Shown here piece after piece: positions 45,960 to 61,064 of a stretch of DNA of 64,000 nucleotides. Location: positions 280,379 through 344,378 of the forward strand of contig JAXHMH010000002.1 in NCBI GenBank assembly GCA_034521515.1, read 5' to 3'. The translations under genes were made by a program, and so were the position numbers. Each line of letters opens with the position of its first letter. Within the stretch, counting starts at the first letter, position 1. Under the pieces are notes generated by a model. It was not told the origin of the DNA. It saw only the letters and a program-made list of their open reading frames with translations, and searched no databases. The DNA comes from Candidatus Saccharimonadota bacterium (GTDB lineage Bacteria; Patescibacteriota; Saccharimonadia; Saccharimonadales; JAXHMH01).

Positions 45960-47039
45960 ATGAAAGCCGCGCGTAAACTTGGCCGCATCCTTAGTGCCAT
46001 AGTTCTCAAACTGAGCCTGGTTGGGTTTGCCGTGGCATTTGCCCTATTAGCGGTTATCGGCACGCCAGAACCACTAAAAACTAGCCTGGGACAATCCGGA
46101 GTCTACTCTGCGGCCGTTGATAGTGTTATAGAAGCGTCAGCTGAAGAAACTGATCAGAGCTTGCCACTCGACGAGCCGGCTATACAACAAGCTGCCCGTG
46201 ACGCCTTCAATCCTTGGCTTCTGGAGCAATCGGCTCACCGCATGATTGACGGGCTTTATGCTTGGCTAGAAGGGGATACCGATGAGATAGAGTTTACGAT
46301 TGACTTAAGTGACGCCAAAGCTTTATTCATCGAACGTGTTGCCGATTATGCTGAGCAGCGTGTCAACAATCTACGTCCTTGCACGCAAGCCGAGGCCTTT
46401 CAGCTAGCCCAGCAAGACTCAATAGATCCGTTTGAGCTTGATTGCCGGCCGCCAGTGGTTATAAGTCAATACCGAGACGACATAATTCGTGAACTCGAAC
46501 AATCCGAGGATTTTTTGGACGACCCGGTTATCACAGCTGAATCACTTGCCGACCAAGAAGGAGCAACGACTAATGAACCGTGGCAAGAAGCACCGGCAGC
46601 ATTTCAACGGCTGCAATGGATGCCACTCGCGACAGGGTTATTTGCTTTTGCAGCCGCCGTATTCCTAATAGCATTGCACGCCAATCGCCGAAGCGGCTTG
46701 AGGCAGGTCAGCATGATTATCTTTTCTACTGGTGTATTGGTGCTCATCAGTGCACTTGTCTTGGACTATTTAATACGTCACAACATAGCTCAAGGCATGT
46801 TGTTTGATATGCAGGATACTGTCCTACAGGGCGCACTGGTAAGTACATCTGTGGCACTTTACGGTTACTTTAGCCGCGCTTTTATTCTCATATCAGCAAT
46901 TTACCTTATGTCTGGTGCAATTTCCCTCGGTATCTTTTGGTTACTCAGAAAACCAAAAAACACTCCAGATACAAGCCAACCTCCCCGCCAGCCAAACTCA
47001 GCCTCTCATGGCAAAAAGCCCACAAAAAATACCAGATAA
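45960..47039 (+). CDS. multi-pass membrane protein, hypothetical
   Basis: An N-terminal helix and three or four C-terminal helices. No family recognised. Confidence 0.5.
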   Translation: MKAARKLGRILSAIVLKLSLVGFAVAFALLAVIGTPEPLKTSLGQSGVYSAAVDSVIEASAEETDQSLPLDEPAIQQAARDAFNPWLLEQSAHRMIDGLYAWLEGDTDEIEFTIDLSDAKALFIERVADYAEQRVNNLRPCTQAEAFQLAQQDSIDPFELDCRPPVVISQYRDDIIRELEQSEDFLDDPVITAESLADQEGATTNEPWQEAPAAFQRLQWMPLATGLFAFAAAVFLIALHANRRSGLRQVSMIIFSTGVLVLISALVLDYLIRHNIAQGMLFDMQDTVLQGALVSTSVALYGYFSRAFILISAIYLMSGAISLGIFWLLRKPKNTPDTSQPPRQPNSASHGKKPTKNTR

Positions 47040-47115
47040 AATACGTGTACTTCGACTACGTACTCGACAATTAGCTACATAGCTTTCATAAATGAACCTC
47101 AAATAATCTCTTAAT

Positions 47116-47156
47116 CTCCCCCTTTGTTCACGATCGTGAACAAAGGGGGAGGTTTT
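47116..47156 (+). terminator. rho-independent terminator of the 45960-47039 gene
   Basis: CTCCCCCTTTGTTCACG pairs with CGTGAACAAAGGGGGAG (17 bp), followed by GTTTTT. Confidence 0.8.
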
Positions 47157-47219
47157 TGGTTGATAGTTTTATCTATTTGAACCTGCTAATTGCCTGATTG
47201 TTTAGATCTAAATTCAAAT

Positions 47220-47443
47220 CCACCGTTTCAACAGAAACAAAAAAACCCACCTGAACAGTGGGTTCTTTTCTTCCTGGCTTGTCACCCATCGATCTTGAGC
47301 CTCAGGGTCGAAAGATGAGCCTGTCGAATGGGCTTGCCGTGAGCCTGTCGAATGGACTTGCCATGAGCTTGTCGAATGGGCCTGCCGTGAGCCTGTCGAA
47401 TGGGCTTGCCATGAGCCTGTCGAATGGCGGAAGGAGAGGGATT
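47220..47443 (-). repeat. orphan tRNA-Ser trailer
   Basis: On the tRNA-sense (minus) strand the order is as follows. First ATCCCTCTCCTTCCGCCA-type 3' end (47425-47443). Then four TTCGACAGGCTCAYGGCARGYCCA units (47317-47424), then one long unit (47275-47316). Last comes a 58-bp block that also occurs at 47546-47603. Confidence 0.9.
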
Positions 47444-47600
47444 ATAGCCTCAGGCCAGGCAGCCTATTTTGTCTAGTTACTTTGGCTGCTTGGCTTCAGC
47501 ATATAATCTCGCTAACCGCTCGATTATCTGAACCCGGGTTCGAACCCACCGTTTCAACAGAAACAAAAGAACCCACCTGAACAGTGGGTTCTTTTCTTCC

Positions 47601-47691
47601 TGGCGGAAGGAGAGGGATTCGAACCCTCGGTGCCGTTGCCGGCACAACTGTTTTCGAGACAGTCCAGTTCGACCACTCCTGCACCCTTCCA
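47601..47691 (-). tRNA. tRNA-Ser (anticodon CGA), CCA encoded
   Basis: Hand fold: acceptor GGAAGGG/TCCTTCC, anticodon stem ACTGT/ACAGT, loop CTCGAAA, long variable arm, T-arm GAGGG TTCGAAT CCCTC. Confidence 0.9.
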
Positions 47692-47713
47692 CGGTTGCTA
47701 TTCTAACAAAAGA

Positions 47714-48223
47714 CTAACTTAGCGACACAATAGCGCCCATGTAGCTCGTCGGGATACGTCTTTTACAGATTTCTACCCGTCCGCGTTTTGCACTGGCGTG
47801 TATATACCTGACCGTTTCATCTTCTACCGTCAACACTATACCCATATGCCCTGGCATTTCAGTTTGCTGGTCGCCAATATCGTAGTACTTTTGTGTGATT
47901 AATAACGCTCCTGCCTCTAGAGCAGATTGCTTAAACATTACTTGCTCAGTTTGTGCGTCATTCCACATATCTCGCACATGCCGCACTTGATCAGGCCAAT
48001 CACTAGGCCTCAACCCTTTCACGTCGCAGATAGATTTTATAACAAAGCCTGAGCAATCAAATTCATCTGGTCCAATCCCTATTTCTGGGCAGTTTTCACG
48101 GGGCAGTGCAATACAATCACCGGCTACAAAATGATGGTAAATTGCCGGCTTATACAGGTACGCACCTGATGCTTGAATGAGTTCTTGCCCGAAGGTCTCA
48201 ATCTTGGTTTTGATATCCCCCAA
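47714..48223 (-). CDS. NlpC/P60 family cysteine peptidase
   Basis: FDCSGFV (catalytic Cys), PGHMGIV (His) and IHAS. No obvious signal peptide. TTG start. Confidence 0.6.
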   Translation of the reverse strand: MGDIKTKIETFGQELIQASGAYLYKPAIYHHFVAGDCIALPRENCPEIGIGPDEFDCSGFVIKSICDVKGLRPSDWPDQVRHVRDMWNDAQTEQVMFKQSALEAGALLITQKYYDIGDQQTEMPGHMGIVLTVEDETVRYIHASAKRGRVEICKRRIPTSYMGAIVSLS

Positions 48224-48282
48224 ATAAATTACAGCAAGTCTAGCACCGATATATACGTACAGTAAATTGCTCCCGCTTAAAG

Positions 48283-50016
48283 TTAAGAGCTATCAATAGG
48301 CTGCTTCTTAGTAAAACGCTCCTTTAGGTTAGCGATGTCATAACGCCATTCCCATACTCCATAGCCTGCAGCTAACGCCACCATAAAGCCGGCAAACCAC
48401 CAACTCAGCGGTGTCGGACGCGCCACCGTTGTAACATCACGCACGTTCATCTCCGGCAGTTCGGTCATCGCTGCTGCCACATTCCGGCAGCGGTTAGTTT
48501 CTGGATTGCGTTCTTGCCCAGGACTACACGGCTTTAGCCCGGACGTTTGATTAATATTACGGCAACGGTTAGTTTCTGGGTTTCTTTCCTGGTGAGGCTT
48601 ACAAGGTACCAGTTGGCGGGTACTACTTGTTACAGAACGGCATCTGTTTGTTTCTGGATTGCGTTCTTGCCCAGGACGGCATGGCACTAGGGAAGAGCCA
48701 GAGTCAATCTTCCGGCAACGGTTCGTCTCTGGATTGCGTTCTTGATCCGAATCACACGGCTTGAGCTCAGAGGTGCTGCTCACGATATTGCGACAACGAC
48801 CGGTATCTGGATTGCGCTCCTTACCTTCCTTGCAATCGGCGTATTCTTGATATTTATTCTCTTGACCCAGGGTTAGTTCATAAGTCTGCCGCCAGTCATC
48901 ATCACCAAACCAAGCCCATGAGGTTTCCGGCCGTAAATCAGAATATTTCTGGGCATCAACCTCTTCTTGTCCGTCAGATGACAATACATATACTGTGCCG
49001 GTAGTTGTTTTGGTAAGTGTCAGTTCCGTGTTTGCAATCTGTATCGTCAAATAATCATGCGGCTCTACAACCTCATCGGCAAACACATAGGTGTTATCGT
49101 TGCGATTGGTTTGCAACTGGCAACCATCCAACTCAGCTTCCTGGTTGGTCAGATTATGCAGCTCTATGAACTGTTCGTCTAAGTTAGCTCCAATTTCAGA
49201 TATCACTACACCCTCGCAAATGTTTATGTCGTCTTCTGGTGCCGTTTCTTGATCAGTATCGAGCTCTTTATCAACCTTTTGGCTTAAATCATCGTCGGGT
49301 TCATCCTCAGGCTTTTCACCGGACTGTTCTTCAGGTTCTTCCTCATCGTCTGGCTCAGGATCAGGCTCAGGCAAGGGACATTCCAGACCAGCTCCGGGCA
49401 TAGGTATCTCGTTGATGGTAAAATCAAGCGCGTTATTACCGGTATCAACTATCAGGCCATCCTGGCCAAAACACCGTATAAGGGACTGGTCTGGCTGCGG
49501 CGCCCCAGCTGGGCTCGTAAGGTAATGCTCGGGGTCACCGTAGCCAACCATATCTACAAGCTCCCCGTCGTTATCAAACAGCCTGATAGTCCCATCATGG
49601 TAGTTTAAGTAACCTGAGGCTGTCCGAGAATCGAGTAGGAAATTCGCCTCCGGCAGATAGCTTTCATAGCTCACCACAAAAAACCCATCAGGCTGTATTT
49701 CGTAACCTACATCTGCATCAGAATCATCCTCAAACAAGACTATAGAACGGGTTGTTGTGCCCTTTTCATTTGCAAACTCTAGCTCCCACCCATCAAGCGA
49801 TACGGTCTCATTGTGCGGGTTATATAGCTCTATAAACTCGTGAGTTCCAACTACGCTACCAGCATCTTCTCCGTCATCTACTGTGCCTCTGTTTTGAAAC
49901 TCACTAATCAAAATCAATGTTTCCGTTGCCGGGGAGTCCTCTGCAACGGCACCGGCAGCCCAAAATAACGGCAAAACAAATCCCAAAACCAGTGCCCATA
50001 CCCACCGTTTGTTCAT
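48283..50016 (-). CDS. surface protein with two lamin-tail-like domains, five Cys-bracketed repeats and a C-terminal membrane anchor
   Basis: Signal peptide. LTD-like segments (HEFIELYNPHNETVSLDGWELEF and EQFIELHNLTNQEAELDGCQLQ). Five copies of C-x4-(Q/K)ERNP(E/D)T(N/G)RCR. A terminal transmembrane helix. Confidence 0.7.
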   Translation of the reverse strand: MNKRWVWALVLGFVLPLFWAAGAVAEDSPATETLILISEFQNRGTVDDGEDAGSVVGTHEFIELYNPHNETVSLDGWELEFANEKGTTTRSIVLFEDDSDADVGYEIQPDGFFVVSYESYLPEANFLLDSRTASGYLNYHDGTIRLFDNDGELVDMVGYGDPEHYLTSPAGAPQPDQSLIRCFGQDGLIVDTGNNALDFTINEIPMPGAGLECPLPEPDPEPDDEEEPEEQSGEKPEDEPDDDLSQKVDKELDTDQETAPEDDINICEGVVISEIGANLDEQFIELHNLTNQEAELDGCQLQTNRNDNTYVFADEVVEPHDYLTIQIANTELTLTKTTTGTVYVLSSDGQEEVDAQKYSDLRPETSWAWFGDDDWRQTYELTLGQENKYQEYADCKEGKERNPDTGRCRNIVSSTSELKPCDSDQERNPETNRCRKIDSGSSLVPCRPGQERNPETNRCRSVTSSTRQLVPCKPHQERNPETNRCRNINQTSGLKPCSPGQERNPETNRCRNVAAAMTELPEMNVRDVTTVARPTPLSWWFAGFMVALAAGYGVWEWRYDIANLKERFTKKQPIDSS

Positions 50017-50063
50017 ATTATAAACAGCATACCGTTTATGCTTACTTTATGTCAAAAAGCTTA

Positions 50064-51518
50064 CTAAATCGGTGTTTCTTTTCTAAAATCATGGCCTGTT
50101 TTACGCCATATATACACCGCAACAAGCACCATAGCGATGTAGCTCATAACTAAACCAGGTATCGATAGCGAAGATTCATGATGCGCCCACGGTATTGATG
50201 ACAGCCAACCTGTCAGACTTGTCATATACCACAACACAGCGTAGGCCGGCAGTCCGATTAATCCCGCTAGCATTGGTAGTAGTGCGCTGCTCATGCCAGC
50301 CACTACCGTCAGTAGCATGACAACTGGCACCAGGGGTAGGATCAAAAGGTTAGACAACAACGCCAATGGCGAATAAAAACCAAAGGTCACTAAGACAATC
50401 GGCAGGGTGGTAATCTGTGCCGCTGTTGTCGCCACCAGCAAATCACGCACGTAACCCGGTTTTTTACTGCCCCAAAAATAACGGTGCAGTAACGGTGCCA
50501 GGATAATGACGCCCGAAAATGCTGCAAACGATAAAAACCAACCAACATCTCCCCATATAAACGATGGGTTTATCAGCAAGGTCATAGCAGCAACCAGTAA
50601 CAGCAAAACAACTGGGTGAACCACCCGTCCGTAATACCACGCGGTTAAACTCAAGCCTGCTACAAGCGAGGCTCGCGTCATGGACGTGCTAAAACCAGTT
50701 AGTAGTAAAAACCCTCCGATCATCAAGCCACTAAAAAACATTGCTAGATACTTGGAACGACCAGCCAATGCTTTACGCGTTGCTTTCACAATAATAGTCA
50801 GATGAAACCCGCTGGCAACCACCAAATGCGACAAGCCCAGAAGCCTAAACTCGTCGCTAAGGGTTTGTGGTAATGCTCGCTTTTGGCCGGCAACGTAACT
50901 CACTCCCAGGCTGGCTTCCGGCTCCGGTACGCTGCCGCGGACTTGCTCGGTAAACCAATCACGAACTTGCCGGGCAACATCTCCCGGCTCAGGCCGCTCG
51001 GCCTCAATAAGTTCTGCCCTAAACATCGAGCCTGACAAGGTACCGAAACCATCATTCAAAACCCCTTTCACGACCACTACGTCGCTACGTTTAATCTCGG
51101 CATTTGAGGTCGTACTAATCCAAACGTATCCAGGCAAAGGCTCGCCATCAATCACGACGTCACCTAATCTGAGCCGCTGATCACCGCTGGATCCGCGCGT
51201 TGTGTCATCGGCCACAACACCTTGCAGCCTAACTTGACGGCCATAAAATGGTTCGTAGCTTTGTAGCTGCCATAGCTCTGAAGTACCTCTATACAACCCG
51301 ACAAAACAACCGCTTATGAACGCCAAAAGCACAAACAATAACTCTCGCTTTAATAGCGCAATACTCAATAGTGCGCCAGCTACCACGAGCCAGGGCAGGG
51401 CGGCAAACAAGCCCGGTGGTATAAGCAACGAACCAGCTGCACCGACAAGCACGCCACCGGCAGTTGCAGCAAAAATCCATGACACATGAATCGGTTTATG
51501 GAACAGCCTGGCTCGCAT
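50064..51518 (-). CDS. comEC: ComEC/Rec2 DNA internalisation channel (membrane core only)
   Basis: Multi-pass membrane protein with LGLSHLVVASGFHL, the competence-domain signature. Confidence 0.8.
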   Translation of the reverse strand: MRARLFHKPIHVSWIFAATAGGVLVGAAGSLLIPPGLFAALPWLVVAGALLSIALLKRELLFVLLAFISGCFVGLYRGTSELWQLQSYEPFYGRQVRLQGVVADDTTRGSSGDQRLRLGDVVIDGEPLPGYVWISTTSNAEIKRSDVVVVKGVLNDGFGTLSGSMFRAELIEAERPEPGDVARQVRDWFTEQVRGSVPEPEASLGVSYVAGQKRALPQTLSDEFRLLGLSHLVVASGFHLTIIVKATRKALAGRSKYLAMFFSGLMIGGFLLLTGFSTSMTRASLVAGLSLTAWYYGRVVHPVVLLLLVAAMTLLINPSFIWGDVGWFLSFAAFSGVIILAPLLHRYFWGSKKPGYVRDLLVATTAAQITTLPIVLVTFGFYSPLALLSNLLILPLVPVVMLLTVVAGMSSALLPMLAGLIGLPAYAVLWYMTSLTGWLSSIPWAHHESSLSIPGLVMSYIAMVLVAVYIWRKTGHDFRKETPI

Positions 51519-51521
51519 GCC

Positions 51522-52268
51522 TTAAAAATCTCCAACAACTGGGAGTATTTGACCTGGGCAAGTTTGTAGCACTCGTTTTATCGCGTTATGCTCATTACGA
51601 GTTACCCATAGATCATACTCCAGCTTTATAGCAATTTGGCGAGCAACATATTGGCACCTATATCTTTCGTGGGGCAGCCAGTCGGCGGCATCTTTGTCGC
51701 CTTTCTCCATATTGGACGCACCATCAACCGCTATTAAAATGAGCGGGTCGTTATAGAACTCTTGTCTGCGTTTGTAATCAAGCTGCTGAGCTCCTTTCTG
51801 CCAAGCGTCCGAGACCGCCACTATATGCTCGATATGGATATCTCCGCTTGTTTCACGACCACGCTGGAAGGGGATTGTCTGGGCAGTAAACGGATCATCC
51901 GGCAAAACCCCCGACAAAACGGTACAATTATCATCATCCAACACAACTTCCTGTAGGTCGCGCTGCAAGATACGATTGCGCATATCACAACCAGCAACTT
52001 CCGCCCAGCCTGGGCTAAACTTATCACGTGCATAACCATCTAGCGATACACGATCTTTAACCGCCAGCTTTCCAAGCGATTCTATGGCTGACACGCGTAG
52101 CTCTTGGGGAACGCTTTGGACAGACAAGGTCTGCGGCGATTCAACAACTTGTTGGGGTTGAAGATAATCAAGCAAGGCTACGATTAAAAACCCCACAGCT
52201 AATAACAAAACTACCGTAAACCGTCGCCGTCTATGCGGCGAGGCTCGTCCCACCAACTTCATGCCCAA
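51522..52268 (-). CDS. membrane-anchored extracellular nuclease, DUF1524/HNH-type
   Basis: N-terminal transmembrane helix, then IHIEHIVAVSDAWQKG...NDPLILIAVDGASNMEKGDKDAADWLP, typical of the DUF1524 nuclease fold. Confidence 0.65.
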   Translation of the reverse strand: MGMKLVGRASPHRRRRFTVVLLLAVGFLIVALLDYLQPQQVVESPQTLSVQSVPQELRVSAIESLGKLAVKDRVSLDGYARDKFSPGWAEVAGCDMRNRILQRDLQEVVLDDDNCTVLSGVLPDDPFTAQTIPFQRGRETSGDIHIEHIVAVSDAWQKGAQQLDYKRRQEFYNDPLILIAVDGASNMEKGDKDAADWLPHERYRCQYVARQIAIKLEYDLWVTRNEHNAIKRVLQTCPGQILPVVGDF

Positions 52269-52312
52269 AACTATAACATAACACTAACTAAGCTGTTCTA
52301 ATCATCGATTAA

Positions 52313-52349
52313 GCTAAACGCGCCAGTCGAGTGGCGCGTTTAGCTTTTT
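52313..52349. terminator. hairpin (GCTAAACGCGCCA / TGGCGCGTTTAGC) with a T-run; its 29-nt core is also present at 23817-23845
   Basis: A 13-bp stem read directly, with TTTTT on the plus side. It lies 18-23 nt downstream of the minus-strand gene 52367-52696. Confidence 0.55.
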
Positions 52350-52366
52350 CAACAAATACCCTAACT

Positions 52367-52696
52367 TTAAGCCGCTCTATCTTGATCTTCAGCAGCTCGC
52401 TCAAGAACTGCTGCTGCATCCTCAAATCTTTGATAGTTGCCACCAATAAAATCTGGTGATAACTGGTTATCGTTATGTACGTTAATGTATACGTCGTACA
52501 CGTCGTCTTCTTCGACAAACCCACGAAGCCTACCGCCAGAATAGTAACCGTAAACTGCACCTAGACCAGCGTCAGGATTAACATACGCCCATATATCTTC
52601 GTTATTCTTTATTCGCACATGCGTCTCACTGGCACCGAACTCTAAAATTTCTATTTTACTCTGTTTATTTTCTTGTGGCTGTAGAGTTTCTCCCAT
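52367..52696 (-). CDS. hypothetical protein
   Basis: 109-aa ORF with no recognisable family. Confidence 0.45.
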   Translation of the reverse strand: MGETLQPQENKQSKIEILEFGASETHVRIKNNEDIWAYVNPDAGLGAVYGYYSGGRLRGFVEEDDVYDVYINVHNDNQLSPDFIGGNYQRFEDAAAVLERAAEDQDRAA

Positions 52697-53022
52697 GTTT
52701 TCTCCCTACATATGTTGTATACCAACCACAAACAAACCGCAAGGCGATACAGCAATATAAACCAGCCGACAAAGGCTAGTATTTACCTCTGTTCTATGCT
52801 AAAATCCACCCTGTTCGAGCCAGTTTGAGGCGAGTCATCGCCAATTGCGCACCCGTAGCCCCGCCTGCCTGTTCGAGCCCCCTGTCTTTCTGACAAGAAG
52901 GCCAGGCAGAACGGGCAGGTCAGCTGCCCCGATAGGGTAAAGACAATTAGCGTCACGCGCTCTATCCAGCTGATTTGCGAGAAGCAAGGTTAACAATCAA
53001 CGGTAAATTATTGCCAATTTAA

Positions 53023-53099
53023 GCACCCGTAGCTCAGCTGGATAGAGCGTCTGTTTGCGGTACAGGAGGTCGTAGGTTCGAATCCTGCCGGGTGTACCA
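53023..53099 (+). tRNA. tRNA-Arg (anticodon GCG by hand fold), CCA encoded
   Basis: Acceptor GCACCCG/CGGGTGT, D-arm GCTC AGCTGGATA GAGC, anticodon stem TCTGT/ACAGG, loop TTGCGGT, T-arm GTAGG TTCGAAT CCTGC. Confidence 0.85.
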
Positions 53100-53105
53100 C
53101 GTTAA

Positions 53106-53130
53106 AACCCGCCCATTTGGTCGGGTTTTT
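53106..53130 (+). terminator. rho-independent terminator after tRNA-Arg
   Basis: AACCCG pairs with CGGGTT, followed by a T-run. Confidence 0.7.
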
Positions 53131-53144
53131 GCGTGGTTCTTTTC

Positions 53145-53287
53145 GGCAGGTTCGGTTCTACGACTCAGCAGCTTGCTGATGAAAGTCGTAGGTTCGGCGT
53201 AGCGAAGTGCAGAAAAGAAAGCACCGTAGGTATTTTCTTTTCAAGCTAGCGGAGGAGGCTTTAGCCGCTATCCTGCCGGGTGTACCA
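53145..53287 (+). repeat. tRNA-Arg-derived structured module M1 (T-arm split by a 73-nt two-hairpin insertion, ends in the tRNA-Arg 3' end with CCA)
   Basis: gtcgtaggttcg (53185-53196) equals tRNA positions 53069-53080. atcctgccgggtgtacca (53270-53287) equals tRNA positions 53082-53099. The insertion 53197-53269 lies inside the T-loop. Confidence 0.8.
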
Positions 53288-53300
53288 GGAGAAATATAAG

Positions 53301-53323
53301 CCACCTTGCAAAAGGTGGTTTTT
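53301..53323 (+). terminator. rho-independent terminator directly after module M1
   Basis: CCACCTT pairs with AAGGTGG, followed by TTTTT. It starts 14 nt after the M1 CCA. Confidence 0.7.
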
Positions 53324-53372
53324 ATTTCTGCTCGATGCTCGAGCCGGGATTTGAACCGTCAAGCGAGCTTAT

Positions 53373-53523
53373 GCGGGCGGAAGGTTCGGTGTAGCGCCGC
53401 TCAGCCGAGAAAGCGCTTTAGCATTTTCTCGGCAAGCAAGCGGAAAAGGACTTTAGTCCGCTATCCTGCCGCCCGCCTGTCTTTCTGGCAAGAAGGCCAG
53501 ACAGGACGGACAGGGGTGTACCA
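53373..53523 (+). repeat. tRNA-Arg-derived structured module M2 (homolog of M1, with an extra 38-nt hairpin element before the final GGTGTACCA)
   Basis: gcgggcgg-aaggttcgg, then a 73-nt insertion, then atcctgccgcccgc. The 38-nt element follows at 53477-53514, then ggtgtacca at 53515-53523. Confidence 0.75.
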
Positions 53524-53687
53524 CTACTGAGTTTTCTGTCATTATGTTATTAAACATCCCCATAGAGCGGGGTCAATATGTCCTGGACGGATGTAAATGT
53601 AAAATATTGATATATATCGATGATTTTGCTAGTATTTCTGGTAAGACCTTCGGCCGTGGTTTCTAAGCCACACTGCGGAAGGCCTTT

Positions 53688-54065
53688 TTAATTTGCGTTT
53701 TTAATTGGGAAAACGGACATGAACTCTTTACGATTTGTACGCTTATTTTCTTTTATTTGCACACAAAAGCGTTCTCCGGTTGCGTTTTGACCATAGAACC
53801 TATGAAGTAATATATTTTTCTCTAAGTTGCTAAAAATAGTATCAGGCGTTTCTGTTGTATTGCGCATTACATCAATTGCACATACGTAGAGCTTGAGGCG
53901 TCTGATTCGTTCTTTTGGCGATTTTTGGTTTAGGTGCTCCCAAAAATTGTTAATAAATATCTTGTCTTTTGTAAAATACTTTGAACGAACATAGGGTGCT
54001 CTGCGCGGTGACCGTTTTTGAATGGCATGATATTTCCCACGCGCTAATTTCGTAAGTTCTTTCAA
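53688..54065 (-). CDS. hypothetical basic protein
   Basis: 125-aa ORF with no family that I can name confidently. Confidence 0.45.
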   Translation of the reverse strand: MKELTKLARGKYHAIQKRSPRRAPYVRSKYFTKDKIFINNFWEHLNQKSPKERIRRLKLYVCAIDVMRNTTETPDTIFSNLEKNILLHRFYGQNATGERFCVQIKENKRTNRKEFMSVFPIKNAN

Positions 54066-54358
54066 GTCAGTACCAGGCAGTTCTCCGTATTTTGATTTAT
54101 ATACACTAATCGGTTCATTCTAGCAGTTTAAATCTATTGCACAGTCATAACATCTCTTGCCATGCATAACACCTTACATATCTACATCCTAGCTTAGTTA
54201 CTCGCGTAAGGGAGTTCGAACCGTAAAAGGTTCGGCATATGTGAGTCCGCTAGCCAGCGGACGAACGAAGAAGCCCATCTTTTAGGGGAGCCCTGCCGCA
54301 GACATGAATAAATAGCTCATGCTTGTTATAAACCCCGATGCTCGTTTAAATTAAGTCT

Positions 54359-55057
54359 ATGGAGCATGGACAAAAGGCAACGCTACCATCAACTGAGCTA
54401 GGCGACTCTAGGTGTTTCCAGATCGAGTACTTTGGGCATGGCGATATATTTATGGTTGCCTGGGAGGGCTCTATTGACTTTGAACCATCTGCCGACGACT
54501 CTACATCTGCTTGCTTTGGGTTTTCACACGGCAGCGATGTGACAATACTTGCGGCACTGGGTGGATATTTGAGGCGTATAGGACACACCGTAGACGAAAC
54601 AAGAGATGTACTTCTTGAAGCCGGTACTGACGTATTAACCGCCAACTATCCTGAGTACCAGCTTGACCGCAGCAGGCACAATAGTTTGCTCGGGAAAGTT
54701 GCAGTCGGTCAGGAGTTTAGGAATTATGACCTCGATGGCATCACAGGTTTTGAGCACTCTTTATCCTGCCTTCTTCCTCCTGTGCCAGACAGACCCGGTC
54801 AAATTGGAAAAACAGGGGGAACCGGTATTTACACAACTCCGTCGCAGGCAGACCAAGAACATCTTGTCTTTGTGTCGCTTGCCCCAAACACAGCCTTACC
54901 GCACGAAGAAAACTTAACGGTCAGCCATACGGCCGAGTTCTGCGAGCAAGACGTCCAAACAATCGCTAAACTGGTGTGCGACGTTGCATTAGGTGAGTAC
55001 CGGATAGACGTCTATGCGTTTTTAAAAAATTTCGGGATGGGGAGTGAAGAAGCCTAG
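54359..55057 (+). CDS. hypothetical protein
   Basis: 232-aa ORF with no recognisable family. Confidence 0.45.
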   Translation: MEHGQKATLPSTELGDSRCFQIEYFGHGDIFMVAWEGSIDFEPSADDSTSACFGFSHGSDVTILAALGGYLRRIGHTVDETRDVLLEAGTDVLTANYPEYQLDRSRHNSLLGKVAVGQEFRNYDLDGITGFEHSLSCLLPPVPDRPGQIGKTGGTGIYTTPSQADQEHLVFVSLAPNTALPHEENLTVSHTAEFCEQDVQTIAKLVCDVALGEYRIDVYAFLKNFGMGSEEA

Positions 55058-55091
55058 ACTACTATCCGTTTATACTTTTTTGCCGTAGGGG

Positions 55092-56252
55092 TTACTCCCC
55101 AGCCAGAGCAACATCGCCGAGCTGGTTGACGTAGCCTATCTCTAAAACGCGCTTACACAACACTATGTATTGATAGAATGTTTCGGTAGTTTCTGGTGGC
55201 AAATTATGTATGTGGCTGCGCACATGGGAAAAGAATGTGTCTGAGATAAAATCACCATATTGCTTACGAATCTCATTACCGTCATGAAAGTGCATGAAAG
55301 CCTCGTGCAGCTTATCTAAGGTGTTTTTATCCTGTATGCCGGCTAGCTCAAACAACGTTCGCAGAAAGGCTTCATTTGGCTGGTTAAACGGATTGAGCGT
55401 AAAAACGCCGTACTCTGGATTGTGGCCAGCATCGGTATCCCAATCGCCAAGCTCATCAGCAATCCGCACCACCACGTTACATATCTGGATCAACTCCACC
55501 ATTATCGGGTCATCATAAACTTCCTGCAGGGAAGGTAGCGAAGAATCGTGCTGCCGATAGATTGCGTAAAGTGAGGATGAGACGCTTGGGAACCCCGCAT
55601 CCACCGTAATAAGCTGAGCTAACCTCTTGCCGTGCTCGTCCATAAAAGCTTGTTTATCAACTGCTCCTTGATAATCTTCACTTAAGTTACGCACATATAC
55701 TTCGTTGAGTAGCACCTGTTCACTAAAACAAGCCAAAACAAACGGGTAATCTTCTGGTAGTGCCAGCTCATCAATTTTGGTCTCTATGTTTTTTAGAGAG
55801 GCTAAACGTGCCTGAACTTTATCGGCTATATCTTTTGGAACAGGAATGTCTTGACCGGCCAACAGCTGCACAGCGTATGACATAATGTCGTCGCCTCTAT
55901 CCATTGTTTGATCTCCCCAATACATCAGCCCTATTGCTACCGATATGGCCTGAAGACGTGTAGTGTCGTCCAGTTCACCAGCAACCAAGGCAGGACAAAA
56001 GCCTACGGTTTTTGGCGCAATCTGCCCGACAAGGTCAGCTACTTCTTTTGCTGAAAATTCTGGCACGCCTTGAGCTATAAATTGCTGTAACTCATTACTA
56101 AACCCACTAGAAATAGTGGCAATTTGGTGTTTTATGTCGTCCATTTTAGCCATCGATTCTGAATCAAAGGAGTCACCGAAAATCGGGCTTTTGTAGGTTT
56201 CTTCTAGTAACTTCTGTAAAATTTTGGCAGACATTAAATATAGAACTTTCAA
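55092..56252 (-). CDS. terpenoid-synthase-fold protein (candidate class I terpene synthase or head-to-head prenyltransferase)
   Basis: Asp-rich segment YWGDQTMDRGDDIMSY and a second acidic segment RIADELGDWDTD about 150 aa later. Predicted to be all-helical. It lies in a cluster with idi and a polyprenyl synthase, separated from them by a small opposite-strand gene (56302-56709). Confidence 0.35.
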   Translation of the reverse strand: MKVLYLMSAKILQKLLEETYKSPIFGDSFDSESMAKMDDIKHQIATISSGFSNELQQFIAQGVPEFSAKEVADLVGQIAPKTVGFCPALVAGELDDTTRLQAISVAIGLMYWGDQTMDRGDDIMSYAVQLLAGQDIPVPKDIADKVQARLASLKNIETKIDELALPEDYPFVLACFSEQVLLNEVYVRNLSEDYQGAVDKQAFMDEHGKRLAQLITVDAGFPSVSSSLYAIYRQHDSSLPSLQEVYDDPIMVELIQICNVVVRIADELGDWDTDAGHNPEYGVFTLNPFNQPNEAFLRTLFELAGIQDKNTLDKLHEAFMHFHDGNEIRKQYGDFISDTFFSHVRSHIHNLPPETTETFYQYIVLCKRVLEIGYVNQLGDVALAGE

Positions 56253-56301
56253 GTATTATTTTGTTGTTTACTCGTTACGTTTATGCCTATAGTATACCTG
56301 T

Positions 56302-56709
56302 ATGGGTGCGAAAAATACTGACAAAAACAAAACTGTAGATAAAGGTGACCACGGCTACTCAGTCGAACATAAAGGTGATTACATTCACCTAAAGACATGG
56401 GGGCGTCTCCATCTAGAAGATTTAAGTGAACCGGCTGAAACCGCACTTAAACTTGCTAAAAAAGAGAAGGCCAAAATGTTGATAGATGATATCCGTGAGG
56501 TTCACTCCCCATTTGTTGACCTGCAAGTTCAAGCCAAAGGTGTCAGTGTTTTGTGGAAACTAAAAGAATTCCACAAGGTCGCGATTGTTTTTAACGAAGG
56601 TGAGCTAGAGAAATTGTTTTTCTCCTCATTAGAAGCACTGCGACTGGGCGGTAATTTCAAAGGCTTTGATAACGTTGACGATGCAGTTGCCTGGCTAAAA
56701 GAAGATTAA
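56302..56709 (+). CDS. STAS/SpoIIAA-like small protein, hypothetical
   Basis: 135 aa. The layout KMLIDDIREV...KVAIVF... resembles the SpoIIAA-like fold families. Weak call. Confidence 0.3.
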   Translation: MGAKNTDKNKTVDKGDHGYSVEHKGDYIHLKTWGRLHLEDLSEPAETALKLAKKEKAKMLIDDIREVHSPFVDLQVQAKGVSVLWKLKEFHKVAIVFNEGELEKLFFSSLEALRLGGNFKGFDNVDDAVAWLKED

Positions 56710-57278
56710 ATAGCCGCTTCATTTAGTTGCTTGAGCCATGTGTTGAAAGCAGACGAATTCTCCAGGTGCTGGAGTTGATCTTTAGCCCAGTAAGAATATT
56801 CAGCTGCTCTTTCACGTAGCTCTGTTTTGTAAACTTCCCAATTGAGCCACTTATAATTAGCAACTTCCTCAAAGTTCAAGGCTGGGTCGGTGGTGGTTCG
56901 GGACACATAAATCGGACAAAACTCGTGTTCTATCACGCCATTCATAGCCGGAGTTTTATAGATATAATCTGGCACAACGCAGGTGAGGTCTGTAAGATCC
57001 GTTAAGCCGAGCTCATGTGCTGCCCGGCGGCTAATAGCGTCTTGTTGCGGCTCTCCCGGAGCAGGGTGGCCACAGACGCTGTTTGTGAGCACACCCGGCC
57101 AGACCTTTTTACTCAACGCGCGCTGCGTGACCAGAAATTGGCCTTTATCGTTAAAAATGTAGCAGGAAAATGCCAGGTGTAGCCGCGTCTTCATGTGGTG
57201 GCTAGCCAGTTTGGGACCAGTTTCGCCAGTAGGCTGACCGGACTCGTCTACAAATACAATACGTTCTTCTTCGGTCAT
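56706..57278 (-). CDS. idi: isopentenyl-diphosphate delta-isomerase, type 1 (Nudix)
   Basis: LHLAFSCYIFN, TNSVCGHP (catalytic Cys) and EHEFCPIY (catalytic Glu). Confidence 0.8.
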   Translation of the reverse strand: MTEEERIVFVDESGQPTGETGPKLASHHMKTRLHLAFSCYIFNDKGQFLVTQRALSKKVWPGVLTNSVCGHPAPGEPQQDAISRRAAHELGLTDLTDLTCVVPDYIYKTPAMNGVIEHEFCPIYVSRTTTDPALNFEEVANYKWLNWEVYKTELRERAAEYSYWAKDQLQHLENSSAFNTWLKQLNEAAI

Positions 57279-58381
57279 CGGTCGCGTTTCTCCAGAAACT
57301 CCACAAAACCGCGCAAAAAACGGCGCAAATCTTCCGGAATATCAATTTCATCCAACTGCTGTAAACACTCTGTTTTATAGTGTGACATCAACGCTTCTGT
57401 CTGGGATAACCCACCACTACGGTCAACGATATCGCGCACCTGTTGGGCTTGCTCTTTGGTAATATCAGGCTTGCCAACCAACTCGTTAAGTACTTGCTTA
57501 TCTTCGGCCGTGGCGCTAGAGAAAGCTAACCACATCGGCAGCGTTTTTTTGCCTTGTGATATATCGCCATCATTAGATTTACCGGTGTCATCAGGCTTGC
57601 CAAACAACCCAATTATGTCATCGCCGGTCTGAAACAATAGACCAAGCGTATCGGCTAGTTTTTCTAAGCCGGCTGGCGGGGGAACACCAGCAACTCCGTA
57701 GCCAAATAACAGTGGTAATTTTATAGAATATTTTCCAGTCACCCAGGCCATAGAGGTTTCTATACGCCCTTGGCTTAACTCCTCTGAGTCAAGCGGCAGA
57801 TAGTCCATTAAGAACTGGTCGTACCAACCCCAAGCTACTTCTTCCGTGGCCTCAATCAGTAAGCTTATGAGCTCAAGCTTGTTAGCGTTTGTCAGATGAC
57901 TGTTTAATACAATCTTATATGACCCAGCTGCAAGCAGGTCGCCACCAATAATTGCTAATGAATTACCAAAATGCTCCTGATCTGCCTTTTTACGGCACAA
58001 TTTGGCCAGATTTGCATGAACAGTTGACGCATTATAACGAACATCATCTCGATCAATAATATCGTCGTGAGTTAATAGAAACTTATGGAACGCCTCCAGT
58101 GCGAGATGAGGGGCGATATCTGACTTACCGAAGCTTGAGGCGGTCACATAAGCTAAAGCTGGACGGAACCGCTTACCTCCCTCTGTAGCAAACCGGCATA
58201 TTTTATCTCTTAACACGTCTTGTTCAGGAAACGAAGTCGCCAAGTACTGCTTAAGCTTCATATTCTGTTCCAATTGAGACACAGCATTTTTGTAGGTTGC
58301 CCAAAAGTAGCCCTGGCCAGATACGTTTTTTTCAGACTTTGACACGTTGTTGTCTTTTTTGTTTTGTGGGCTGGTCTTCAT
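57275..58381 (-). CDS. polyprenyl diphosphate synthase (short-chain, GGPP/FPP-synthase-like)
   Basis: GGKRFRPAL, first Asp-rich motif HDDIIDRDD, and a second motif FQTGDDIIG in which Gly replaces the usual third Asp. Confidence 0.75.
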   Translation of the reverse strand: MKTSPQNKKDNNVSKSEKNVSGQGYFWATYKNAVSQLEQNMKLKQYLATSFPEQDVLRDKICRFATEGGKRFRPALAYVTASSFGKSDIAPHLALEAFHKFLLTHDDIIDRDDVRYNASTVHANLAKLCRKKADQEHFGNSLAIIGGDLLAAGSYKIVLNSHLTNANKLELISLLIEATEEVAWGWYDQFLMDYLPLDSEELSQGRIETSMAWVTGKYSIKLPLLFGYGVAGVPPPAGLEKLADTLGLLFQTGDDIIGLFGKPDDTGKSNDGDISQGKKTLPMWLAFSSATAEDKQVLNELVGKPDITKEQAQQVRDIVDRSGGLSQTEALMSHYKTECLQQLDEIDIPEDLRRFLRGFVEFLEKRDR

Positions 58382-58399
58382 TACAGTAGATACTCTAGC

Positions 58400-59335
58400 T
58401 CAAAACCGGACTTTGCGCATCAGTTTATCGACCGTGTCTGGCGGACGATCTTCGTGCGGCAAGAAATTAGCAAGTGTCTCTACAATTTGATCGCCTTGCT
58501 CTGGCGGGAAATAGATTGTTATGCCGGGCATGAACCGTTTGAGCGGCATAAGCATAATCGACTCGATACCGCCTTCATCCTGAACAGTGAAGGTTCGAAA
58601 CATTTCATACGGATAATGATTTTGAGAAATAGTGATACCGCTGTCATCGATTTGATAATTTAGAACCTGTGGTTTACGCATCGCAAAAACTCCAAAAGTT
58701 ATCGCCACTACAATAATGACAATCGGCGTTATTAAATCACCAGTCAGTGCATAAAGACCGCCGGCCACTATCAGCGAAATAACGCCGAGAGCTACGTACC
58801 AGCCGGCGCCCTTATCATGGGCAACATATTCCGAGGCAGACCATTGGATCGCGGGTATATCGTCTTGAGTATCTGCACCAGCTTGATTGTTATTTGCTGG
58901 CGTCCAGGAAGGAGGGTTAGCCTCTGCCTGAGTTCTACCTGGCGGTTCTGTTGCAGGCTGGGTTTCATCCGCTTGAACCTGATTTGTAGCCGGTTGTATT
59001 GCCTCCGTAGCTGGTTTCTGCTCCATAGGTTGAGCTGGCTGAACTGGCTGTGTATCCTGCACACTTGAAGTATCTGTAGCATTATCAGCAGATGGTTGGC
59101 TATCTTGGCTTGATGCTGGGGTATTATTCGTGGCAGTTGGTTGTTGTATCGAAACATTATCCGTAGAAGACTGTTTTTCTGCCAAATCAGGGGTTGATGG
59201 TGCTGGCTGAGGAGACGGCTGCGCAGCAGGAGCGACCGGTTCTGGAGTCTTTGCCGGTTCAGTGCCGTTATTATCCGACTTATTAATGGGGTTGATTGTT
59301 TCACCTGGCTGCATACTAACCATATTGTACCGCAA
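58400..59335 (-). CDS. membrane protein with a P/Q/T/A-rich N-terminal region and a bacterial-PH-like C-terminal domain
   Basis: Two adjacent transmembrane helices (WYVALGVISLIVAGGLYAL, ITPIVIIVVAITFGVFA) followed by a ~90-aa domain. The family call is weak. Confidence 0.45.
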   Translation of the reverse strand: MRYNMVSMQPGETINPINKSDNNGTEPAKTPEPVAPAAQPSPQPAPSTPDLAEKQSSTDNVSIQQPTATNNTPASSQDSQPSADNATDTSSVQDTQPVQPAQPMEQKPATEAIQPATNQVQADETQPATEPPGRTQAEANPPSWTPANNNQAGADTQDDIPAIQWSASEYVAHDKGAGWYVALGVISLIVAGGLYALTGDLITPIVIIVVAITFGVFAMRKPQVLNYQIDDSGITISQNHYPYEMFRTFTVQDEGGIESIMLMPLKRFMPGITIYFPPEQGDQIVETLANFLPHEDRPPDTVDKLMRKVRF

Positions 59336-59563
59336 AGCCTTTTATGCTTACACCTCTTTACGAAACAGATGGAATACAAGCGGGTAGTTTGTTATAATCT
59401 ACTTCTGTTACAATCTGTAATTACAGCCCGGCCAATTGGCCAAACCAGGCAGCCTGCCCGCTGTTTGGAATTTTGAGAGGAGAAGACTTGTTTGGATAGC
59501 TATTTTTGCCGAGTAAACTTGTTTTGTCGGCGAATGAGCTATCCAAGCTTCACACTTCGACGA

Positions 59564-59869
59564 GGAGAGGTACCCAAGTGGCTGCTGCGTGAAACGTGAA
59601 TTGTTCGACGGTTTGCGGCAAACCAGATAAGGTAACAGGTATACTGCACATTACAATTCAAATACGGATAAATACCCGAGTGGCTGCTGCGTGAAACGTG
59701 AATTGTTCGACGGTTTGCGGCAAACCAGATAAGGTAACAGGTATACTGCACATTACAATTCAAATACGGATAAATACCCGAGTGGCTGCTCAAGTGAAAC
59801 GTGAATTGTTCGACGGTTTGCAGCAAACCAGATAAGGTAACAAGTATAATGCACGTACAGCTAGAATAC
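59564..59869 (+). repeat. three tandem 102-bp units, each beginning with a tRNA-Ser 5' acceptor/D-arm-like sequence
   Basis: The units span 59564-59665, 59666-59767 and 59768-59869. Unit 1 starts ggagaggtacccaagtggctg, identical to the first 21 nt of the adjacent tRNA. Units 2 and 3 start ggataaatacccgagtggctg. All three contain gacggtttgc, which also occurs in the tRNA anticodon arm. Confidence 0.95.
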
Positions 59870-59962
59870 GGAGAGGTACCCAAGTGGCTGAAGGGGACGG
59901 TTTGCTAAATCGTTAGGGGGTGGAAACACCCCGCGAGGGTTCGAATCCCTCTCTCTCCGCCA
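59870..59962 (+). tRNA. tRNA-Ser (anticodon GCT), CCA encoded
   Basis: Acceptor GGAGAGG/TCTCTCC, anticodon stem ACGGT/ATCGT, loop TTGCTAA, long variable arm, T-arm GAGGG TTCGAAT CCCTC. Confidence 0.9.
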
Positions 59963-59993
59963 TGAACCATATGGTTCATAGCTATGGTAGTAC

Positions 59994-60083
59994 GGAAGGG
60001 TGACCGAGTGGTTGAAGGTACTTGTCTTGAAAACAAGCGTGCCGGCAACGGTACCGTGGGTTCGAATCCCACCCCTTCCGCCA
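59994..60083 (+). tRNA. tRNA-Ser (anticodon TGA), CCA encoded
   Basis: Acceptor GGAAGGG/CCCTTCC, anticodon stem CTTGT/ACAAG, loop CTTGAAA, long variable arm, T-arm GTGGG TTCGAAT CCCAC. Confidence 0.9.
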
Positions 60084-60240
60084 TTCGACAAGCTCATGAC
60101 AAGCCCATTCGACAGGCTCATGGCAAGTCCATTCGACAAGCTCATCTTTCGACCCTGAGGCTCAAGATCGATGGGTGACAAGCCCGTTCGACAGGCTCAT
60201 CTTTCGACCCTGAGGCTCAAGATCGATGGGTGACAGGCCA
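60084..60240 (+). repeat. tRNA-Ser trailer repeats: two 24-nt units and two ~54-nt units, three of the four ending in CCA
   Basis: TTCGACAAGCTCATGACAAGCCCA (60084-60107), TTCGACAGGCTCATGGCAAGTCCA (60108-60131), and long units at 60132-60185 and 60187-60240. Confidence 0.95.
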
Positions 60241-60251
60241 GGAAGAAAATT

Positions 60252-60277
60252 ACCCGCCATGCAGGTGGGTTTTTTTG
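60252..60277 (+). terminator. rho-independent terminator of the tRNA-Ser operon
   Basis: ACCCGCC pairs with GGTGGGT (one G-U pair), followed by TTTTTTT. Confidence 0.75.
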
Positions 60278-60401
60278 TTTCTGTTGAAATGGTGGATATT
60301 AATTTAAATCCAAGCAAACAAGCTATTAGTCGATTCATACGGATAAACCGATCAATCAAAAAACACCCCTTTTGTTCACGATCGTGAACGGAGAGGGTAG
60401 T

Positions 60402-61064
60402 TTATTGTTTTTGGGCAAAGGCGGTAGCGTATACCTTTTTGGTGCCAGCTTGTTTAAGTTCTCTAGCAGCTGCTTCCAGAGTAGCCCCAGTGGTTGTTAT
60501 GTCATCAACCAACAGCACTGGTGACTTTATAACAGAAACTGGACGGAAGGCTCCTTGTAGCTGCTCAACTCGCGTCGTTTTATCAGATCCAACTTGCCGG
60601 CTGTGACCCTTCCTGGCCAACAAAGTTTTATGCCTTAATCCGCAACTGTTGGCTAACGACCTAGCAAGCAACTCTGCTTGATCATAGCCTCGCTGACGTC
60701 GCCTGCTAGTGGCAGTCGGCACATGAGTTACTAGAACATCCTTAGAAATATATGGCAGAGCCTCTATCATTAAACCGCTAATCACTTCCGCTGCAGCAAC
60801 TGTACGCTCAAACTTAAGCTTGTGGGTAAGATGGCGGGCGAGCGGAGTATAATCGGTGCGTATCCATACATGCTTTAACACTGATTTCTTTCGGCAACGC
60901 GAACAGGTTGCCGATTCTGTAGTCTGTGCCTGACACATATAACAACGTGGGGGCAGAGGATCGAATGCTTCAAACTCACACCACCTACACAGCAAGCTTC
61001 CTTCTTTCTTGCACAAGACACATCGATGAGGCGCCACCAAACCAATAAGCTTATCCACTATCAT
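60402..61064 (-). CDS. comF: ComF family protein (phosphoribosyltransferase-like, ComFC type)
   Basis: N-terminal Cys clusters (CVLCKK...CRWC, CYMC...CSRC) and the PRTase motif VLLVDDITTTGATL. Confidence 0.8.
   Translation of the reverse strand: MIVDKLIGLVAPHRCVLCKKEGSLLCRWCEFEAFDPLPPRCYMCQAQTTESATCSRCRKKSVLKHVWIRTDYTPLARHLTHKLKFERTVAAAEVISGLMIEALPYISKDVLVTHVPTATSRRRQRGYDQAELLARSLANSCGLRHKTLLARKGHSRQVGSDKTTRVEQLQGAFRPVSVIKSPVLLVDDITTTGATLEAAARELKQAGTKKVYATAFAQKQ

Follow-up and report, generated by a model that had tools for sequence, protein, structure and literature searches.

The stretch of DNA analysed here, 64,000 nucleotides of contig JAXHMH010000002.1 (positions 280,379 to 344,378) from a Candidatus Saccharimonadota bacterium and hereafter called the window, carries serine tRNA genes at two loci that face away from each other, and this report concerns the repeat-bearing sequences that follow them. 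At locus A, tRNA-Ser(CGA) lies on the minus strand (47601-47690), while at locus B tRNA-Ser(GCT) (59870-59962) and tRNA-Ser(TGA) (59994-60083) lie on the plus strand; all were called by both ARAGORN and Rfam. A preliminary description of this DNA had proposed that homologous blocks of about 320 bp in inverted orientation bracket a 12.6-kb segment between these loci. The blocks were confirmed by MAFFT, in which the reverse complement of block A (47100-47443) and block B (60065-60412) aligned end to end with an identity of 272/333 (81.7%), and all of the sequence elements quoted in that description were found within them. Identity differed by part: the tRNA 3' end matched at 17/19 positions and the unit region at 83% (with whole-unit insertions and deletions), the terminator module reached 88%, the spacer 74% and the terminal palindrome 78%. 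A repeat search divided the pair into three overlapping inverted arms, 47118-47336 / 60179-60397 (219 nt, 85%), 47276-47379 / 60081-60184 (104 nt, 95%) and 47363-47443 / 60065-60145 (81 nt, 91%), and the longest identical run measured 49 nt (47280-47328 = 60187-60235). When the whole 64-kb window was scanned, every inverted repeat of at least 40 nt belonged to this single pair. The blocks are paralogous 3' trailers of tRNA-Ser genes pointing away from each other, and since their host genes face outward, gene orientation alone is sufficient to make them an inverted repeat.

Both trailers share a common layout consisting of an array of 24-nt units, a 55-nt composite, an intrinsic terminator, a spacer and a palindromic terminator, the last of which is shared in each case with a converging protein gene. 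The 24-nt (F) unit is CCATTCGACNNGCTCATGRCAAGY, following the scheme TTCGAC..GCTCATGGCAAG..CCA, and the 55-nt unit consists of a 24-nt unit into which 31 nt are inserted, with a core, CCCTGAGGCTCAAGATCGATGGG, that resembles a reversed (R-type) unit. At locus B the first F unit opens with the CCA of tRNA-Ser(TGA) as its initial three bases. Two F units (CCATTCGACAAGCTCATGACAAGC and a variant; repeat search, 60081-60128, plus strand) are followed by two 55-nt composite units with nested R-type units (60129-60238, plus strand; period 55, 2.1 copies, 93% matches), terminator module T1-B (60239-60295, plus strand; CCAGGAAGAAAA, a hairpin at 60252-60270 and a U tract), spacer B (60296-60359, plus strand; approximately 65 nt, from the alignment with spacer A) and palindrome T2-B (60360-60403), which abuts the stop codon of the ComFC gene (60402-61064, minus strand).

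The order of units at locus A is like that at locus B, but with four 24-nt units and one 55-nt unit. Read in the direction of the minus strand, tRNA-Ser(CGA) is followed by a 157-bp insert (47444-47600), then by an orphan 19-nt tRNA-Ser(CGA) 3' end that extends from A58 in the T loop through CCA (47425-47443, minus strand; 19/19 identical to 47601-47619), and then by the four tandem F units (CCATTCGACAGGCTCAYGGCARGY; 47332-47427, minus strand; period 24, 4.7 copies, 88% matches). The 55-nt composite unit (47277-47331, minus strand), again a 24-nt F unit split by a 31-nt R-type unit, contains the 49-nt run identical to block B. Beyond it lie terminator module T1-A (47220-47279, minus strand; CCAGGAAGAAAA, then a hairpin at 47269-47239 and a U tract), spacer A (47155-47219, minus strand) and, at the outer end of the block, palindrome T2-A (47113-47154), with 21-nt arms around gttcacgatcgtgaac that are 95% complementary. 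T2-A is also terminator-like on the plus strand, where a 19-pair stem is followed by a T tract, and it sits 74 nt past the stop codon of a converging open reading frame (ORF; 45960-47039, plus strand). The 157-bp insert carries a second copy of T1 directly after the real gene (hairpin 47595-47565) together with a diverged copy of the spacer, and the ORF list places no ORF and no integrase gene within it. Intrinsic terminators for the tRNA-Ser transcripts were thus observed at 47595-47565 (minus strand), 47269-47239 (minus strand) and 60252-60270 (plus strand). The preliminary description of both blocks as trailers of outward-facing tRNA-Ser genes stands, with the correction that block A adjoins the orphan 19-nt end while the real gene lies 157 bp upstream. 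Its further claims of a 58-bp direct duplication (47220-47277 / 47546-47603) and of a duplicated 19-nt tRNA 3' end (47425-47443 / 47601-47619) were recovered by our repeat search, and both duplications bear out its view of locus A as marked by past recombination.

The unit shared by the two trailers (TTCGAC..GCTCATGRCAAG) begins at 60081, on a true tRNA end, and at 47427, on the orphan end, in tRNA orientation in both cases, and it was found at just these two places in the window. A CRISPR array was considered and rejected, as the units follow one another without spacers, at periods of 24 and 55 nt. We searched metagenome contigs with the pattern CCATTCGACN{0,30}GCTCATGRCAAG, which the window units also match, and obtained matches in at least 120 contigs spanning a GC content of 34-71%; by our own arithmetic, fewer than ten chance matches are expected for the 21 specified bases. 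Among the 125 matches listed, 42 start exactly on a CCA end, 35 of them on tRNAs called by ARAGORN (21 anticodons) and 7 on tmRNAs, while 3 adjoin the 5' end of a tRNA and point the opposite way. Many of the remaining matches listed follow degenerate or orphan tRNA 3' ends or lie in hairpin loops. Individual loci and contigs used for comparison are referred to below by labels such as L001, L003 and L022.

In its canonical form the element reads tRNA-NCCA / TTCGAC(T/G)CG, a variable hairpin, C(T)(C/T)GCTCATGGCAAGCCA, a spacer, CGAG(T/G)CGAATG and CCCTGAGCGAGCGAAGCGAGTCGAAGGGC. The complete form comprises, in order, the tRNA-CCA end, a forward unit (F1), the 3' strand of a long stem, pairing with the final bases of the tRNA, and a second, reverse hairpin (R2). 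For example, the trailer of tRNA-Ser(GCT) in L001 begins CCA/TTCGAC..GCTCATGGCAAGCC, contains an F1 plus R2 palindrome and folds as a 22-bp hairpin starting 3 nt past the CCA (z = -4.9). In the window trailers R-type units occur only in nested form (CCCTGAGGCTCAAGATCGATGGG) and a canonical R2 is lacking, with fold z-scores of -3.6 (B) and -2.0 (A). Tandem arrays were also observed in L027, L097, L106 and L127, and units nested within units in L061, L095, L111, L117 and L120. Copies within one genome were near-identical in L022 (after tRNA-Ile and tRNA-Ala) and L113 (two copies), to which we add the window blocks. In L022 the two near-identical F1 units (966-1139) follow tRNA-Ile and tRNA-Ala in the 16S-23S rRNA spacer, and this location places the element in the transcript of an rRNA operon there. 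The relative L124 lacks the element at the same tRNA-Ser genes.

Rfam 15 was applied at the gathering threshold to the window and 20 related loci, at E <= 0.05 to 12 loci and at E <= 10 to the two window blocks. No family covered the element at the gathering threshold, nor at E <= 0.05 in the related loci, and at E <= 10 the two blocks returned only weak, sub-threshold matches to unrelated families. The families reaching threshold were tRNA, tmRNA, rRNA, one c-di-GMP-II riboswitch and one Acido-Lenti-1 RNA. The riboswitch aptamer, in this Saccharibacteria genome, lies at 9800-9885 of the window on the minus strand (58.8 bits against a gathering score of 53.5), and the Acido-Lenti-1 RNA lies at 3516-3561 of L094, also on the minus strand (46.1 bits), approximately 400 nt downstream of a tRNA-end element. 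A limited search of the open-access literature found no description of the element. When compared by eye, the sequences did not fit the consensus of a hammerhead or other ribozyme core, of a T-box-like UGG/CCA contact or of a tRNA-like minihelix. Many database 'hypothetical proteins' carry strings such as PFDKLR, SLSNH or PELVEG, which we presume to be translations of such units. The units in the window are short members of a cross-phylum family of structured palindromic elements that is apparently undescribed.

Structure was examined in 22 aligned complete leaders, in which three helices were tested: the long stem (P0), the apical hairpin and the R2 hairpin. P0 is formed by CATTCGAC and the variable bases after it, which pair with the variable bases preceding G(T/G)CGAATG and with that motif. 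Across the 22 leaders 86.8% of cells pair, a share that drops to 29-47% once the partners are slid. Both sides change in nine pairs, and the observed covariation score was reached by none of 500 shuffles. In a separate longest-helix test, at least 10 uninterrupted pairs were present in 31% of 86 elements and in 8% of shuffled sequences. The three bases before TTCGAC, which are part of the tRNA gene, also covary with the far strand (CCA/TGG, CAC/GTG, CCC/GGG), which argues for selection on pairing across the junction between tRNA and element. An alternative local hairpin on the same 5' bases covaries as well (in one pair, GC 11, CG 8, UA 2), and the leader may switch between two folds or may represent a DNA-level palindrome.

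The commonest Pfam family among 94 listed ORFs of at least 110 aa downstream of elements was GIY-YIG. With a hidden Markov model (HMM) of the family, we found that 17 loci among the matches listed have a same-strand GIY-YIG ORF 93-236 nt downstream. Ten domain regions, nine from these 17 loci and one from the L001 ORF, all matched PF01541 above the cut-off (E 2e-10 to 6e-18), two with a weak additional match to T5orf172 and none with any other Pfam family. For elements with at least 420 nt of downstream sequence, the gene followed 16 of the 31 with an R2 hairpin and 1 of the 43 without R2, and the link to the nuclease thus depends on the completeness of the element. In L037, a leader without an ORF, sequence is common with the filled tRNA-SeC loci only up to R2 and is unrelated beyond it. 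In L001, of the same lineage as the window, a GIY-YIG ORF lies beside tRNA-Arg. Neither transposases nor reverse transcriptases were among the 25 commonest Pfam families of the 94 listed downstream ORFs, nor was the IS200-like family, and Phage_integrase was matched by one of the 94. The element-linked GIY-YIG ORFs are 78-126 aa in length. Homologues of one of them, annotated as 'GIY-YIG nuclease family protein' in several phyla of the candidate phyla radiation (CPR), measure 78-132 aa, and almost all of the homologues called have no precomputed Pfam domain besides PF01541.

For an independent test we began with the protein and chose five CPR homologues only for their long contigs. All five had tRNA-end sequence 90-200 nt upstream on the same strand, with the gap filled by F and R units. 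ARAGORN called the tRNA in four of the five loci (Asn-GTT, Gln-CTG, Met-CAT and Gln-TTG), and in the fifth (L130) only the 3' end was recognisable. L127 carries four 23-24-nt F units in tandem after tRNA-Asn, a design like that of the window. In L130 the 20-nt tRNA 3' end recurs just past the nuclease stop codon, and the cassette there is thus bounded by tRNA-end repeats. We also observed in L128 that reverse-type units (GTGGTGAG..CGAACCA) lie directly before the 5' end of tRNA-Gln (about 1280-1307) and again after the GIY-YIG stop codon (about 1760-1790), which shows that a block of tRNA plus cassette can have units on either side. Related to the motif-derived L042 is a second subfamily, which shares 80% identity with a protein from a Vicinamibacterales (Acidobacteriota) metagenome-assembled genome (MAG), where the locus is laid out as tRNA-SeC, element and GIY-YIG gene.

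The insert at locus A is one example of a second kind of footprint. In seven places a complete tRNA gene is followed by an insert of 96-171 nt and then by a repeat of 17-21 nt of its own 3' end, beginning in the T loop and finishing at CCA: at tRNA-Ser(CGA) and tRNA-Arg in the window, and in L001, L024, L030, L083 and L089. The T loop is the classical crossover site of tRNA-targeting integrases, and the orphan repeat begins at the matching position; no integrase gene was found at the orphan-end inserts. F units follow the orphan end in four of the seven places (window tRNA-Ser(CGA), L030, L083 and L089), and because of this order we take the units to be the original flank and the small insert to have arrived later. 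The inserts in the unrelated contigs L024, L030, L083 and L089 share a motif like GATTGGGACGAGAACC / GGAGGGACGAGAA, and may represent a second family of miniature tRNA-targeted insertions, as judged from this likeness. At the tRNA-Arg(GCG) island of the window (52878-53514) the orphan 18-nt 3' end lies 170 nt downstream of the gene and is followed by a terminator. The insert there holds a 12-nt copy of the 5' half of the T arm (GTCGTAGGTTCG), and the island is flanked by 42-nt direct repeats (52878-52919 / 53473-53514, 88%); tRNA-Arg of L001 has the same orphan-end layout. At locus B, three 102-bp tandem units (59564-59869, plus strand; tandem-repeat score 519) directly precede tRNA-Ser(GCT), each opening with the gene's first 21 nt, copied identically in the first unit and at 81% identity in the next two. 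These units, in the region 59564-59890, mirror the orphan 3' ends at the 5' side, and may represent duplication of the tRNA promoter region.

The segment between the two blocks contains, by Pfam, NlpC/P60, LTD and ComEC proteins, a GmrSD-type nuclease, a NUDIX protein and a polyprenyl synthetase, and tRNA-Arg(GCG) (53023-53099, plus strand; ARAGORN and Rfam), in agreement with the gene content previously given for the 12.6-kb segment. The wider gene set, with type IV secretion system (T4SS) pilins, ComEC, ComFC and the LTD protein, is typical of Saccharibacteria. The LTD-protein gene contains five imperfect 75-78-bp tandem repeats (48479-48819), a coding repeat. A ComEC scan yielded at least two relatives, both Candidatus Saccharibacteria MAGs, and no ComFC relative above 59% identity was present in the protein database searched. 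For synteny we compared L001 (ComEC 61%, ComFC 52% identical) and L124/L125 (ComFC 59%), both from Saccharibacteria. The window, L001 and L124/L125 share a frame that runs from pilins, Hsp20, ComFC, tRNA-Ser(TGA, GCT) and a homologue of 58400-59335, through variable DNA, to tRNA-Ser(CGA), a homologue of 45960-47039, HIT, HTH/HAD and ValRS. The DNA between the tRNA-Ser genes varies from approximately 3 kb in L124 to 8 kb in L001 and 12 kb in the window. The chromosomal order of tRNA-Ser(TGA) and (GCT) is constant (window 59870-60083, L001 7837-8051, L124 11025-11326), and the strand of the pair is opposite in L001; a simple inversion does not explain this, because it would also swap the order. 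The only exact match to the window ComFC elsewhere was a 924-bp contig (L003) identical to 61129-60206 and ending in the 55-nt repeat, and it is silent on orientation because recombination in the units leaves the outer part on ComFC either way. The short-read contigs carrying ComFC, L003 and L126, end in the 55-nt unit and 51 nt past ComFC, respectively.

Taken together, we consider it probable that the two trailers derive from a tRNA-flank nuclease cassette, as its remnants or non-autonomous copies, and became alike within this genome, and that no dedicated inversion switch is present. The complete element is the leader of a tiny GIY-YIG gene that is transcribed in the direction of the tRNA, and the two together would constitute a cassette that spreads among tRNA loci, both inside single genomes and across lineages. 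The window would keep only remnants without an ORF or non-autonomous copies, and its two tRNA-Ser trailers would have been made alike by intragenomic copying or gene conversion, as the near-identical within-genome copies in L022 and L113 suggest. Unit number would then have changed by slippage, and a separate 157-bp insertion, bounded by the 19-nt tRNA 3' end, would have displaced block A from its tRNA. A broader and more tentative proposal is that the element and the domain-only GIY-YIG protein constitute an undescribed mobile or domesticated system, in which a structured leader, as RNA or single-stranded DNA, would pair with the end of a tRNA or tmRNA gene and supply the target or structure specificity missing from the nuclease, and which may spread across phyla (CPR, Acidobacteriota), leaving arrays without ORFs like the two in the window. 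Several observations weigh against the cassette reading. We infer, rather than observe, that the window copies are remnants, as the family HMM (E <= 1e-3) found no GIY-YIG gene or remnant in the window; mobility of the cassette is likewise putative. The likeness of the blocks runs on through terminator and spacer, so that the copied unit is larger than the repeat family. The search pattern fixes 'CCA' and two conserved cores, which biases the sample to that subtype. The nuclease ORFs consist of the catalytic domain only and lack a DNA-binding domain, a poor fit to classical homing endonucleases, and a distant Syntrophus homologue (L140) has neither a tRNA nor an element upstream. Finally, the covariation, which includes the last bases of the tRNA itself, points to selection on a structure and would suit a role in host RNA processing equally well.

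That last point leads to the main rival, in which the structured 3' trailer pairs with the CCA end of the tRNA and directs 3' processing, termination or the release of a small CCA-ended RNA, the GIY-YIG gene merely exploiting a strong tRNA promoter. In its favour are the covariation of the helices, including pairs with the terminal bases of the tRNA, the constant orientation (42 matches listed at the 3' end on the same strand versus 3 elsewhere), the position within an rRNA operon spacer in L022 and the CCA that ends every unit. Nevertheless, we consider a host function unlikely, because the element is missing from the same tRNA-Ser genes in L124 and is patchy across tRNAs and genomes, and because units are nested in units and copies are near-identical within genomes and diverged between them, which are hallmarks of selfish repeats; the tight linkage of the complete form to a nuclease gene is a further argument against it. 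We assign a considerably smaller probability to the reading of the units as integrase-island debris, in which successive rounds of integration and excision at the 3' end of the tRNA would have left arrays of att-like fragments. The orphan tRNA 3' ends 96-171 nt downstream of complete tRNAs and the one Phage_integrase match among the downstream ORFs speak for it, and at locus A a 19-nt direct repeat from T loop to CCA flanks inserted DNA as in tRNA-targeting integrative elements. However, a single match in 94 ORFs is no enrichment, the locus A insert is only 157 bp long and without an integrase, and the F and R units are not tRNA copies: they lack the acceptor-stem sequence of the tRNA preceding them, one and the same unit is found after tmRNA and after tRNAs of at least 21 anticodons, and the units lie outside the att-bounded insert, past the orphan end.

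The invertible segment suspected in the preliminary description, with the blocks as substrates for homologous recombination and both orientations of the 12.6 kb in the population, appears improbable, if marginally less so than integrase debris. The arms (81.7% over 333 nt) are the sole large inverted repeat in the window, and their 49-nt identical run is long enough for RecA-type recombination, which requires tens of bp; assemblies also break inside the repeat (L003) or 51 nt after ComFC (L126), although such breaks are expected at any tandem repeat and are neutral as to orientation. Against flipping, the frame and the side and strand of the gene adjoining junction B (the homologue of 58400-59335) are unchanged in the window, L001 and L124, and the GC skew across 47-53 kb has the same sign as that of the left flank. 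No second orientation was seen among the window, L001 and L124, which are collinear but only distantly related. No recombinase or invertase gene was found in or beside the segment (Pfam, 19 ORFs submitted from 44-64 kb). The arrangement resembles inversions between rRNA operons or insertion sequence copies and the Hin, Gin and Fim switches in that inverted homologous blocks bracket a segment, but it differs from those switches in having no invertase gene and arms of about 330 bp that are far longer than invertase sites, and from these systems generally in that relatives show no alternative orientation and that flipping the window segment would alter nothing regulatory. Inversion, which the preliminary description said such repeats can drive, is thus possible in principle and physically feasible but without support, and with relatives this distant a polymorphism within the population may still exist. 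Very improbable, finally, is a repeat peptide. The 24-nt period corresponds to 8 codons, an ATG-initiated frame opposite the tRNA strand (47315 onward, plus strand) stays open across the locus A array and would encode MSLSNGLA repeats, and two of the unit's four variable positions are synonymous there. At locus B, however, a stop codon closes the frame after 12 codons in one unit, and elsewhere it is read antisense through two tRNA genes (ORF 59861-60181), the variable inserts of the family are not multiples of three and no ribosome-binding site is evident. The antisense MSLSNGLA coding repeat was rejected, as its frame is kept neither at locus B nor across the family.

Comparison with known systems helps to place a nuclease cassette of the kind favoured here. 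REP and REPIN sequences are short extragenic imperfect palindromes, of which an inverted pair forms a long hairpin, and the associated RAYT is a Y1 (IS200-like) transposase (PMC3116915, PMC3337134). The family described here is likewise palindromic, with an inverted pair making a long hairpin (L001 F1-R2, approximately 22 bp), and shows near-identical copies within a genome and an associated small nuclease-type gene. In contrast to REPIN-RAYT, the gene is GIY-YIG and not a Y1 transposase, and there is no GTAG tetranucleotide. REP and REPIN sequences also spread through intergenic DNA, whereas the elements here sit on tRNA and tmRNA 3' ends (at two sites in the window), and REPs are lineage-specific, whereas the core of this family recurs across phyla. 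SegB of phage T4 is a free-standing GIY-YIG homing endonuclease gene in a tRNA gene cluster (PMC2330249). As in SegB-type homing, a GIY-YIG gene lies between or after undisrupted tRNA genes; a conserved tRNA gene would be an ideal target, and co-converted flanks could explain near-identical flanks. The ORFs described here differ in being 78-126 aa long with the catalytic domain only and in having a structured leader that pairs with the tRNA end, and this family is known from sequence only. What sets the tRNA-end family apart from both REPIN-RAYT and SegB is its type of nuclease, which lacks a DNA-binding domain, its strict positioning on tRNA ends and its conserved leader. A third parallel is 3'ETS-leuZ of E. 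coli, a tRNA 3' external transcribed spacer that acts as a small RNA. Here too a sequence is transcribed with the tRNA between CCA and terminator, but the family is repeated, nested, cross-phylum and linked to a nuclease.

What had been suspected to be an invertible segment is thus a pair of sister tRNA trailers, and a false lead is removed. On a practical level, the repeats break short-read assemblies at tRNA genes, as in L003 and L126. More broadly, the units of these trailers reveal a covarying family beside the tRNA and tmRNA genes of very different bacteria, outside Rfam, and to our knowledge the GIY-YIG gene linked to it is among the smallest nuclease genes. If the family is mobile, it would explain many stray 'hypothetical' peptide tails, which we take to come from translated repeats, and would provide a compact pair of nuclease and structured leader worth biochemical attention. 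Such mobility would also represent a new use of the universally conserved end of tRNA genes as a safe landing site.

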